In this document: one piece after another, positions 22,733-45,800 of the stretch
Layout of the letters: every line of letters starts with the position of its first letter
How positions within the stretch are numbered: position 1 is the stretch's first letter
Assembly: GCF_963527515.1 (NCBI RefSeq)
Contig: NZ_CAURTV010000007.1
Coordinates: 10,910-74,909, forward strand
DNA from: an uncultured Cellulomonas sp.
Lineage (GTDB): Bacteria; Actinomycetota; Actinomycetes; Actinomycetales; Cellulomonadaceae
DNA length: 64,000 nucleotides
Direction of reading: 5' to 3'
Notes under the pieces: model-generated
Told to the model about the DNA's origin: nothing
Databases searched by the model: none
What the model saw: only the letters and a program-made list of their open reading frames with translations
Program-made: the position numbers and the translations under genes

Positions 22733-23120
22733 GCGGATGAGTCAGTCGATACGCCGGGTTCTGTCCTCGCACGCGGTTGCCCGCACTGCGCGAGTGGCGG
22801 CCATCCCTCTACGACGTACGTTGCCGCACGCCTCCAGCGGCCTACCCGGGAGCTCGGGCGAGCAGCCCTCGAACGCTCCCTGTCTGACCTTGCTCCGGGT
22901 GGGGTTTACCTAGCCGCACCGGTCGCCCGGCACGCTGGTGGTCTCTTACACCACCGTTTCACCCTTACCCGACCGGCGGACCGGTCGGGCGGTCTGTTCT
23001 CTGTGGCACTGTCCCGCGGGTCACCCCGGGTGGGTGTTACCCACCACCCTGCTCTGCGGAGCCCGGACGTTCCTCGGCGAGCCCGAGGGCTCGACGCGGC
23101 CGCCTGACTGACTCATCCGC
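22733..23120 (-). ncRNA. rnpB: RNase P RNA, bacterial class A
   Basis: GAGGAACGTCCGGGCTCC, CAGTGCCACAGAGAACAGACCGCC and ACAGAACCCGGCGTA cores. Complementary ends GCGGATGAGTCAGTC / GACTGACTCATCCGC. TAGGCT -10 upstream. Confidence 0.97.
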
Positions 23121-28314: not shown

Positions 28315-28388
28315 TGGGCCCGGCCGGTTTCGAACCGGCGACCTCCGCGGTGTAAGCGCGGCGCTCTGACCAGCTGAGCTACAGGCCC
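28315..28388 (-). tRNA. tRNA-Val(TAC), CCA not encoded
   Basis: GGGCCTG/CGGGCCC acceptor stem, CCGCG-CTTACAC-CGCGG anticodon arm, GTTCGAA T-loop. Confidence 0.96.
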
Positions 28389-42446: not shown

Positions 42447-43700
42447 ATGCCGACCGAGGAACCACCACCGAACGGCGTGCACTCCGAGGTGGGGCGGCTG
42501 CGCAAGGTGCTCGTCTGCGAGCCCGGCCTGGCGCACCGGCGGCTGACCCCCACCAACGCCGGGGACCTGCTGTTCGACGACGTGCTGTGGGTCGAGAACG
42601 CGATCAGCGACCACCGCGCGTTCGTCGCGGAGCTGCGGTCGCGTGGCGTGGAGGTGCTCGAGCTGCACGACGTCCTGGCGCAGACGATGGCGGTGCCGGG
42701 AGCACGCGACTGGCTGCTGGACCGCAAGATCGTCGCCGACGACGTCGGCCTGGAGCTCGTCGACGACGCGCGCGAGTTCCTCGACAGGCTCGAGCCCCGG
42801 CGGTTGGCCGAGTTCCTCATCGGTGGCCTGGCGACCGTCGACATCACGGGCGGGTTCGACGACGGCCACTTCGCCCTCGCCGAGTACTCCCCCGACTCCC
42901 GCGAGTACGTGATGCCGCCGCTGCCCAACACCCTCTACACGCGCGACACCACGTGCTGGCTGTACGGCGGGGTCACGCTGAACCCGCTCTACTTCTCGGC
43001 CCGCCGCGACGAGACGCTGCTGATGAAGGCCGTCTACCTCTTCCACCCCGACTTCGTCGGCTCGACCGTGTGGTGGGGCGACCCCGAGCGGCACTGGGGC
43101 CGATCGACCATAGAGGGCGGGGACGTCATGCCCGTCGGCAACGGCACCGTGCTCGTGGGGATGAGCGAACGCACGTCCCGCCAGGGCATCACGCAGCTGG
43201 CCGCCGCCCTGTTCGCGCAGGGGGCCGCGGAACGCGTGGTGGTGGCGGGTCTCCCCCGGCTGCGCTCGGCGATGCACCTCGACACCGTGTTCACCTTCGC
43301 CGACCGCGACGTGGTGACGCTCTACCCCAAGATCGTCGACGCGATCCACCCGTTCACCCTGCGCCCTGGGGACGGCGGGGGCGCCCACATCACCGACGAG
43401 GGCGGCACCCCGTTCGTCGACGTCGTCGCGGGCGCCCTCGGGCTCCCCGGCCTGCGGGCGATCGAGACCGGCGGTGACGTGTACGCGTCCGAGCGCCAGC
43501 AGTGGGACAGCGGGAACAACGCCGTCGCCGTGGAGCCGGGCGTTGTGTTCACGTACGACCGGAACACGACCACCAACGCCCTGCTGCGGGCGGCCGGGAT
43601 CGAGGTGGTCGAGATCCGCGGCGCCGAGCTGGGTCGCGGTCGGGGCGGCGGTCACTGCATGACGTGCCCGATCTCCCGGGACCCGCTGCCGGAGACATGA
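42447..43700 (+). CDS. arcA: Arginine deiminase
   Basis: [41 protein letters not shown]. Confidence 0.95.
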
Positions 43701-43757
43701 GAAGAGCCCCTCCCGGGGTCGGGAAGGGCTCGTCTCGAGACTAGCGGAGCGGTGAGC

Positions 43758-43976
43758 TCACTCAGCAGCGCGCTGCGTGGGGACACCGGTGAGGAGCGAG
43801 CGCACCTCGGCCTCGTGGAAGCGGCGGTGGCCGCCGAGGGTACGGACGGCCGAGAGCTTGCCGGCCTGGGCCCAGCGCGTGACCGTCTTGGGGTCCACGC
43901 GGAAGAGCACGGCGACCTCGCCCGGCGTGAGCAGAGCGCCCTGCGAGAGGGGAGCGTCGGAAGTGGTGACAGCCAT
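43758..43976 (-). CDS. bldC: BldC-family transcriptional regulator (MerR-like small wHTH)
   Basis: LLTPGEVAVLFRVDPKTVTRWAQAGKLSAVRTLGGHRRFHEAEVRSLL, very close to the Streptomyces BldC core; AGGAG SD. Confidence 0.93.
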   Translation of the reverse strand: MAVTTSDAPLSQGALLTPGEVAVLFRVDPKTVTRWAQAGKLSAVRTLGGHRRFHEAEVRSLLTGVPTQRAAE

Positions 43977-43988
43977 GATGGTTCTCCT

Positions 43989-44069
43989 GTCGTTCGGTAG
44001 CTCGGCTGGCCATGTAGGCCCCGTGGCTTTGCGTCCCCGCCTTGCAGCGGGTTTGCCGTTGTCGCTGAC
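43989..44069 (-). promoter_or_regulatory. Cyclic di-GMP class I (GEMM-I) riboswitch
   Basis: GGCAAA-CCCGCT-GCAA-GGCGGG-GACGCAAAGCC-ACGGGGCCTACATGGCCAGCCGAGCTACCGA matches the GEMM-I consensus (GNRA-capped P2, GACGCAAAGCC junction, TACCGA 3' end). Confidence 0.9.
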
Positions 44070-44076
44070 AAACGGA

Positions 44077-44105
44077 ACTATGCCCGAATCTGGACGCTTG
44101 TGCAA
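44077..44105 (-). promoter_or_regulatory. Sigma70-type promoter of the riboswitch-bldC transcript
   Basis: TTGCAC-17 nt-CATAGT, ending about 7 nt before the aptamer. Confidence 0.7.
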
Positions 44106-44142
44106 GAACCACCCCCGCACGTTTCGCGCGCAAACGGGTGAT

Positions 44143-44940
44143 TTAAATGCGTCCGAACCGGGCACGGACGAACGAGTAGACACCGAACGCCATGAACCCG
44201 AGAGCCACCACGACCAGCATCGCGACGCCCGCGGGCTGGTCACGCAGGGTGTGGAGCGCACCGTCGAGGCCGGTGGCCTTGGACGGGTCGGCCTGGAGCG
44301 CCGCCGTGACGAAGAGCACACCCACGATCGCCAGCGCCACACCCTTGGCCACGTAACCGACCACGCCGAGGCGCCGGACGACAGGTCCCGCCTGGCCGGA
44401 GGGCAGCCGGTGCAGGTCCTCCAGGAACTTCTTCTTCCACCCCTTGACCACGTGGTAGGCGCCGACGGCGACGATCGCGAGCCCTGCCGCCCCGACCAGC
44501 ACCCGGCCCCCGGGCGCCGCCATGAGCCTGGCCGTCAGGTCCGACGTCTGCGCAGAGCTCGAGGATCCTCCCCCGCGCGCGAAGCCGAGGGCGGCCAGCG
44601 CCAGCGCCAGGTAGACGACCGCGCGTCCGGCCGACTTCGCCCGGTCACCCGCACCGCCCGGCGCTCCGGGCGCCCGCGACCCGCCGTGGATCGCGCGGGC
44701 CACCTGCCACGCACCGAGCGCCGCGAAGGCGACGACCGAGAACCAGAGCACGACGCTGCCGAAGGGGGTCGTCGAGATCGTGGCCAACGCCCCGGACTGG
44801 TCCGCCTGCTGGGAACCGCTGCCGAGCGCGAGGCGCAGCGCGAGCACCCCGATGAGGATGTGCAGGACGCCACTGACGGCGTAGCCCGCCCGTGCCGCCA
44901 GCTCCCAGGACCGTTCCGCGCTCACCGTGCTCGTGGTCAC
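44143..44940 (-). CDS. DUF1206 membrane protein
   Basis: ARAGYAVSG..H, QSGAL...PFG, G.VGY.AKG, GLDGAL..L..QP.G repeats; GAGGAGG SD. Confidence 0.88.
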   Translation of the reverse strand: MTTSTVSAERSWELAARAGYAVSGVLHILIGVLALRLALGSGSQQADQSGALATISTTPFGSVVLWFSVVAFAALGAWQVARAIHGGSRAPGAPGGAGDRAKSAGRAVVYLALALAALGFARGGGSSSSAQTSDLTARLMAAPGGRVLVGAAGLAIVAVGAYHVVKGWKKKFLEDLHRLPSGQAGPVVRRLGVVGYVAKGVALAIVGVLFVTAALQADPSKATGLDGALHTLRDQPAGVAMLVVVALGFMAFGVYSFVRARFGRI

Positions 44941-45026
44941 GACTGACTCTCCTCCTCGGACGACCCCCCGTCGCGCTGATCGTGGCAGGAGGGGCGCCGT
45001 CCGGCGACCGGAGAGACCGGGATGGG

Positions 45027-45100
45027 TGGGGCAGGTGGGGCTTGAACCCACGACCCACGGATTATGAGTCCGCTGCTCTGACCGGCTGAGCTACTGCCCC
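45027..45100 (-). tRNA. tRNA with CAT anticodon, probably tRNA-Ile2 (lysidine-modified)
   Basis: GGGGCAG/CTGCCCC acceptor stem, GCGGA-CTCATAA-TCCGT anticodon arm. Lacks initiator features (C1:A72 mismatch, three GC pairs). Confidence 0.9.

Positions 45101-45724: not shown

Positions 45725-45800
<76 letters not shown>

Follow-up and report, generated by a model that had tools for sequence, protein, structure and literature searches.

A conserved class I c-di-GMP aptamer in the predicted leader of a bldC paralogue in Cellulomonas

The window analysed here, a stretch of 64,000 nucleotides from an uncultured Cellulomonas sp., carries on its minus strand a short unit in which a predicted promoter, an aptamer and a Shine-Dalgarno (SD) sequence lead directly into a small regulatory gene. 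A check of the sequence reproduced every coordinate given in the original prediction for the promoter, the aptamer, the AGGAG core and the start codon (ATG at 43976, minus strand). The DNA had also been attributed to a non-streptomycete actinobacterium, and the nearest named relatives are indeed Cellulomonas. In the direction of transcription, the features are as follows.

44135..44141, minus strand: conserved upstream element, a TCACCC core following an A/T tract (from conservation)
44100..44105, minus strand: predicted -35 hexamer TTGCAC (from sequence and the conservation of the TT(G) columns in 99 promoters)
44087..44096, minus strand: BldC-like box in the -35/-10 spacer (7 of 10 positions agree with the reverse-complemented whiI-opt repeat)
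44077..44082, minus strand: predicted -10 hexamer CATAGT (from sequence and conservation)
43989..44069, minus strand: class I c-di-GMP (GEMM-I) aptamer (from Rfam RF03167 and RF01051 and covariation)
43984..43988, minus strand: SD core AGGAG (from sequence and pairing to the 3' end of the genus 16S rRNA)
43758..43976, minus strand: bldC paralogue, here bldC2, encoding a 72-aa MerR-like winged helix-turn-helix (wHTH) protein without an effector domain (from NF033787, a PDB match and a tree)
43699..43736, minus strand: strong hairpin between bldC2 and the convergent arginine deiminase gene, a predicted terminator

The convergent gene downstream of bldC2 was recognized by its match to arginine deiminase. 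The segment 43690-43760 folds with -36.5 kcal/mol (z -4.57), and none of 200 shuffled sequences was equally stable. Because this strong hairpin parts bldC2 from the arginine deiminase gene, a monocistronic bldC2 mRNA is predicted. The next gene upstream has the same orientation and encodes a DUF1206 membrane protein (44143-45100), and two tRNA genes are found further upstream (45725-45797). In several relatives bldC2 is adjoined by tRNA-Met(CAT) and tRNA-Asn, and in Actinotalea-type loci by tRNA-Arg(CCG). The window also contains an RNase P RNA (class A; 22734-23115) and a further tRNA gene (28315-28388) on the minus strand.

Covariance models placed the aptamer firmly in a known class. The Rfam family c-di-GMP-I-GGC (RF03167) matched positions 44066-43992 over its full length with 68.7 bits (gathering score 59, E 3.7e-14), and its parent family RF01051 reached 65.7 bits against a gathering score of 35. 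This was the check that had been proposed for the aptamer, and both models passed their gathering scores. In the predicted fold, P1 is formed by GUC (44069-44067) and GAC (43991-43989) together with a CG/CG segment, P2 is capped by a GNRA-type tetraloop, and P3 completes the structure. The positions equivalent to those of the Vc2 riboswitch are G14 at 44063, G20 at 44057, G21 at 44056, C46 at 44031, A47 at 44030 and C92 at 43997.

Comparison of 32 diverse aptamers supported this fold. Within the alignment 98.1% of the cells were paired and 7 pairs showed two-sided changes; none of 500 shuffles scored as high, and controls in which the pairing was slid gave only 25-42% paired cells. Covariation thus bears out the P1/P2/P3 three-way junction. 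The swap of C-G for G-C in P1, present in 5 related sequences, is probably a single event. The outer P1 stem reads GUC/GAC in 83 of 101 leaders and GUUG/CGAC in another 14. The minimum free energy of the whole leader was no better than that of shuffled sequences (z -0.10), as expected of a ligand-dependent fold. The aptamer is an ordinary member of its class and probably carries an automatic annotation flag already.

The type example of the class is the Vc2 riboswitch upstream of tfoY in Vibrio cholerae, with which the bldC2 element shares the P1/P2/P3 fold, the G20, A47 and C92 contacts, the position in a 5' leader and, by prediction, a P1 that the ligand closes. The two differ in that the bldC2 aptamer takes up all of the leader between the predicted +1 and the SD, with no separate expression platform in evidence, and in that its target is an actinobacterial BldC-family protein.

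Upstream of the aptamer, the -35-like TTGCAC and the -10-like CATAGT are separated by a spacer of 17 nt. A generic sigma-70 promoter scan left the bldC2 promoter under its threshold (0 found), and the support for it comes from conservation. A lenient xAxxxT hexamer occurs 6-8 nt ahead of the first G of the aptamer in 103 of 107 aptamer-bldC rows, most often as CATAGT (58 rows) or TATAGT (12 rows). A pyrimidine precedes that G in 104 of 107 rows, the leader is 86-99 nt long in all 107, and the two TT columns of the -35 hexamer are 87% and 80% conserved among 99 promoters. A chance expectation of zero for the exact promoter pattern was set aside as circular. From the -10 spacing, the preceding pyrimidine and the held leader length we infer that transcription starts at G44069, the first base of P1. 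RNA-library contigs of relatives (sharing at most 0.11 of words) span the aptamer and the gene, and some extend upstream past the promoter, which may reflect DNA carry-over or read-through.

The gene itself belongs to the BldC family. On the HTH_BldC model (NF033787) its ORF scored 100 bits against a cut-off of 77, and the closest solved structures are those of Streptomyces BldC (PDB 6amk and 6ama, E ~4e-26). PMC5859096, in its available part, names the residues of BldC that contact DNA or build the head-to-tail oligomer; E16, F21, R22, K26, R30, W31, L43, G44, H46, R47 and R48 are all kept in bldC2, and only K33Q and the conservative I40V depart from the set so named. The likeness to Streptomyces BldC covers the effector-less MerR-like wHTH, the named residues and a C-terminal PxQR tail; of 104 riboswitch-linked BldCs, 76 have a [VI]PxQ motif in this tail.

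This gene is not the canonical bldC. Two BldC genes in the genome score over the NF033787 cut-off, and the other one (L003, contig C16) lies beside purM/DUF3073 and has no riboswitch. The 31 best-scoring BldCs of the family all lack an upstream aptamer, and 27 are neighbours of DUF3073. Another 20 stretches contained bldC in 19 cases, 8 riboswitch-linked and 11 riboswitch-free; purM/DUF3073 was nearby in 0 of the 8, as opposed to 10 of the 11. In a quick tree (75 columns), one branch parted 91 distinct riboswitch-linked proteins from 19 canonical ones with an SH-aLRT of 96. Since it is absent from the purM/DUF3073 locus and separated in the tree, the window gene is, on this evidence, a bldC paralogue and not the canonical orthologue, and it is limited to one branch of Cellulomonadaceae. 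The original description of a "bldC regulator" thus holds for the family and fails for orthology. Besides its place away from purM/DUF3073, bldC2 differs from Streptomyces BldC in K33Q and Y49F, in its predicted control by an RNA sensor and in a host without a BldD match.

In two genomes, complete to 100% and 99%, respectively, the riboswitch-linked copy is the sole BldC over the cut-off (G238, C11:777321, L231; G271, C2:419361, L232). This suggests that bldC2 can replace the canonical gene. In some genomes bldC is riboswitch-linked twice, or there is an additional, divergent copy with FHV for FRV (L044 with L049; L067 with L075; L210 and L222). The genome studied here also encodes a third, weaker BldC-like HTH (G000:C1:82037, L005), which scores 52.8 bits, below the cut-off, and has no aptamer.

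An upstream survey of bldC had been proposed as a check, and it revealed the aptamer-bldC junction in all 91 genomes of the genus, 89 by two complementary exact patterns and 2 by inspection. With a looser pattern, exact matching recovered it in 0 of 400 other genomes of the phylum, a sample in which no further member of the family was present. A search of the GTDB species collection with the exact pattern yielded 106 stretches, with titles naming Cellulomonas, Actinotalea, actinomycete bins, one Brevundimonas and one Cellulosimicrobium. The Brevundimonas-titled contig (L073) carries a Cellulomonas-type aptamer-bldC2 locus and is probably a binning error. Class I aptamers as such were present in 49 of 150 family genomes and in 8 of 27 genera, and the riboswitch-bearing genera mostly have at least two bldC genes. 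Some genomes of the family contain up to 9 class I aptamers. The genes that flank bldC2 vary, the neighbours seen in the window recurring in 7-29 of 69 long loci.

The SD core AGGAG lies directly 3' of the 3' strand of P1, abutting the helix but not paired within it. As had been claimed, a scan of the interval between the aptamer and the ATG found no terminator-like site, which makes post-transcriptional control likely. To this extent the original proposal of control through the RNA is supported. The direction of control we can only infer, because the SD is unpaired in P1 and because folding and covariation across the leaders revealed no conserved base-pairing (anti-SD) switch.

Several observations bear on that direction. 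The distance from the end of P1 to the AUG is 11-15 nt in 55 of 63 distinct regions and 12 nt in the window, which we take to fall inside the 30S footprint. When 92 leaders were folded without constraint, P1 was unformed (median pair probability 0.0), so the ligand would be needed for its closure. In Vc2, according to the part of PMC11705072 available, P1 forms on ligand binding and translation is repressed, making it a translational OFF switch. With a 15-nt 16S tail taken from a relative, the SD duplex reached the 3' strand of P1 in 43 of 63 regions, and removal of that strand weakened it by at least 1 kcal/mol in 39 of 63 (in the window, from -9.2 to -6.9); with a 13-nt tail, the duplex overlapped P1 in 4 of 63 only. 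In several sister aptamers before other genes, inspection by eye indicates that the upstream leader can pair with the SD or its surroundings (L011, L143, L151, L153 and L162).

An extended P1 that masks the SD by means of the pyrimidine tract after the -10 hexamer was considered and rejected, as it lacked covariation. Positions 2-4 of such an extension paired no better than in shuffled sequences (101 leaders), and position 1 gave a weak signal (71 vs 64.7 of 101, uncorrected for kinship).

That bldC2 is governed after transcription starts by a functional c-di-GMP riboswitch appears highly probable. Given such a riboswitch, the held P1-AUG distance, the reach of the SD duplex, the pairing in sister leaders and the Vc2 precedent together favour an OFF switch that works by occlusion of the ribosome-binding site, and we consider this fairly probable. 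Binding of c-di-GMP would lock the short P1 helix against the SD; the locked helix, ending 12 nt ahead of the start codon, would hinder ribosome loading on the bldC2 mRNA. A class I c-di-GMP riboswitch acting as a translational OFF switch in the leader of a lineage-specific bldC2 is, as a whole, the best explanation we can offer, and we hold it with modest confidence.

In the main rival reading, the same aptamer and ligand would form an ON switch, in which closure of P1 draws the GAC strand and the 5' end away from weak pairings with the start region, or shields the 5' end of the mRNA, so that BldC2 rises with c-di-GMP. We regard this as possible but on the whole doubtful. When P1 was closed on top of a fixed P2 and P3, the ribosome site became easier to open, with a median shift of -0.91 kcal/mol over 92 leaders and a small gain in 72% of them. 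However, the shift was larger (-1.37 kcal/mol) in 368 controls in which the start region was swapped for that of other genes, so the native gain lies below that of random controls. A first folding test that had favoured ON in 82 of 92 leaders was discarded, as its forced pairs introduced a bias and controls abolished the signal. The free fold of the window leader pairs GACAG with CUGUC over the start codon, but such alternative pairings vary between leaders. Shielding would fit a transcript predicted to begin with the first base of P1, as its first nucleotides would be base-paired and the compact fold would be an obstacle to nucleases; aptamers that block scanning by RNase E are known (available part of PMC9943677). 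Protection of the 5' end alone, however, would not demand a P1-to-AUG distance of 11-15 nt. An ON switch would also match in sign the excerpted statement of PMC6428758 that BldC and c-di-GMP each delay Streptomyces development. It is improbable, in turn, that the aptamer has no effect on bldC2 translation and is part of a read-through transcript or a separate c-di-GMP-binding RNA, the gene being controlled by its promoter only. No expression platform was found, and the RNA-library contigs that run upstream through the promoter in some relatives would suit such a reading, if they stem from read-through and not from DNA carry-over. Against it, the spacing of promoter, aptamer, SD and ATG is held in 107 of 107 rows while the flanking genes vary, and unrelated genes are headed by the same layout.

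The identity of the ligand was judged from the aptamer and from the gene content of the host. G20 and C92 contact the two guanines of c-di-GMP (PMC11705072, available part). The original prediction had pointed to a G and a C at these positions, and the assignment to the c-di-GMP class holds: of 107 aptamer-bldC rows, 106 have G at position 20 and 106 have C at position 92, although the search pattern restricted position 92 to C or T and admitted A alone at position 47. Six GGDEF matches, two EAL motifs within GGDEF-bearing frames and one HD-GYP motif were found in the genome, so that, as predicted from domains and motifs, the host has a gene set to make and degrade c-di-GMP. A competitor is 3',3'-cGAMP or another cyclic dinucleotide, as the "GGC" variant family of Rfam scores slightly above its parent (68.7 vs 65.7 bits), variants of altered specificity can hide inside a class (excerpt of PMC5473149), and single metagenome-bin variants of the bldC2 aptamer have A20 (L096) or U92 (L071), which possibly mark a ligand change or a sequencing error. 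In the available part of PMC7288161, G20A is tied to cGAMP binding and a change of Asp to Ser marks the Hypr cyclases. The c-AMP-GMP (GEMM-Ib) riboswitches of Geobacter have the fold and the Rfam clan in common with the bldC2 aptamer but combine A20 with Hypr GGDEF domains. Here, G20 and C92 occur with Asp-type GGDEF domains: Asp is kept at the Hypr Ser position, which we placed by a sequence motif, in the five frames inspected of six (the sixth is a weak match). A search of the genome with the SMODS (CD-NTase) profile gave 0 matches. With G20, five frames free of Hypr-type GGDEF and no SMODS match, the locus departs from the GEMM-Ib pattern, and sensing of cGAMP or another dinucleotide is very improbable; c-di-GMP is the likely ligand of the bldC2 aptamer.

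BldC binds DNA as cooperative multimers and oligomerises on DNA only. As it also has no ligand-binding domain, its activity probably follows its amount, and the RNA would therefore supply the small-molecule input that the protein lacks. A riboswitch on bldC2 would thereby meet the need for concentration control implied in a question that PMC6428758, as excerpted, raises, namely whether the ligand-free BldC is governed by its concentration like Fis.

The BldC-like box offers a further layer of control. The whiI-opt repeat with which it was compared was taken from the available part of PMC5859096. At least 7 of 10 positions match within the spacer of 70 of 99 promoters, which are related sequences, as against 1.0% of 20,000 random genome windows. 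BldC requires direct repeats; the window promoter has a single box, and a second TGTCC at a distance of 19-20 bp was present in only 20 of 82 promoters, relatives that are not independent. The spacer box is predicted to be an auto- or cross-regulatory site, and BldC binding over it would add a feedback loop. In 55 of 101 leaders the TCACCC element precedes the aptamer by 60-85 nt, and it is possibly a BldC-type half-site. An A/T tract with TCACCC also occurs on contig C33 near 6816 (G000), after two BldC-like boxes. Prediction of a BldC regulon from repeats was abandoned, since 138 loose tandem matches genome-wide gave no discrimination. PMC6428758, in the part available, likewise cautions that BldC sites are not reliably predictable.

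The original prediction had c-di-GMP reach the Bld network through this RNA. A full network of that kind does not appear to exist here, as a profile search found BldD in 0 of 151 genomes of the family, while in a set of 151 genomes drawn from the order the same model matched 56. BldD of S. coelicolor represses bldC directly (available part of PMC4255298), and for this repression it requires c-di-GMP (PMC6428758, in part). An OFF switch would therefore keep the Streptomyces sign, and in both systems c-di-GMP would reach bldC expression. In Streptomyces this is achieved by a protein receptor acting on transcription, whereas the receptor predicted for Cellulomonas is an RNA acting after transcription start.

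A simple replacement of BldD by the riboswitch is made less likely by the canonical bldC, which the riboswitch leaves untouched. The idea that loss of BldD forces the riboswitch found no support: BldD is missing in all 27 sampled genera, but the aptamer is present in only 8, and one genome (G041) with 13 GGDEF matches has neither. As for the other known receptors, the best RsiG candidate in the genome scored 22.7 bits, under the cut-off of 27, and a regular expression found no MshEN motif.

Motility had been named among the possible outputs. It is not a required one, because flagellin-negative genomes keep the aptamer-bldC element: flagellin is present in 64 of 91 genus genomes, and the junction is kept in 27 of the 27 without it. 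The genome studied here also gave no flagellin match. Flagellar control was thus rejected as the necessary purpose of the element.

On the sequence evidence, the regulatory unit is real and genus-wide; the aptamer class is known, and what appears new is that it is linked to a paralogue of BldC in a family where BldD was not found. Literature searches returned no publication on a link between a c-di-GMP riboswitch and bldC; the likely source papers of the Rfam GGC variant, which possibly list gene associations, were outside these searches. Cellulomonas is named in a 2026 preprint about the control of WhiG by c-di-GMP in Actinomycetota, which, in the part available, contains neither "riboswitch" nor "BldC" (PMC12871210).

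In the literature consulted, signalling by c-di-GMP in actinobacteria is described through protein receptors (BldD, RsiG-WhiG). The bldC2 aptamer, present throughout the genus, is a candidate for an input to a Bld regulator at the level of RNA where BldD was not found. With about 370 nt and one gene, the circuit is small enough to test the role of BldC and c-di-GMP in non-sporulating actinobacteria, among which we count the Cellulomonas host. Its aptamer-only leader should also show cleanly whether an aptamer that folds next to the SD can regulate without a pairing switch.

A broader scenario, speculative and in our view rather unlikely in its entirety, is that a BldD-less branch of Cellulomonadaceae rebuilt the c-di-GMP-to-bldC link in RNA. 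In this scenario, bldC was duplicated and the copy came under a platform-free riboswitch that sets the amount of a filament-forming DNA-binder. BldC would also bind over the promoter of its own gene, and a sister riboswitch would drive a protein of 45-58 residues that has the C-terminal [VI]PxQR tail of BldC and would perhaps compete for the same partner.

That sister is the second class I aptamer of the genome (L001:1501-1745; G000:C72:3606 onward), which has the same order of promoter, aptamer and SD and precedes a 50-residue ORF. The ORF gave no Pfam match and no usable Atlas match. It contains a W-A-x-(L/I/M)-A segment and has its own conserved promoter, CTTCC ... TAATGT. The riboswitch-bearing genera contain homologues of about 43-58 residues, the majority with a C-terminal [VI]PxQR-like motif that resembles the BldC tail (L144, L203-L205, L209, L211, L212, L214, L215, L217-L221, L223-L225, L227-L230).

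Elsewhere in the order, class I aptamers head a variety of genes. L151 encodes a WxL-domain protein, to which L011 shows a weak match, L143 a lone receiver domain, L206 DUF4214 surface proteins and L155 a protein with RTX repeats; another locus of the order (L226) was grouped with those in which class I aptamers precede other genes. Type IV pilins are headed by a class I aptamer with an atypical 5' part (L158 and L164).
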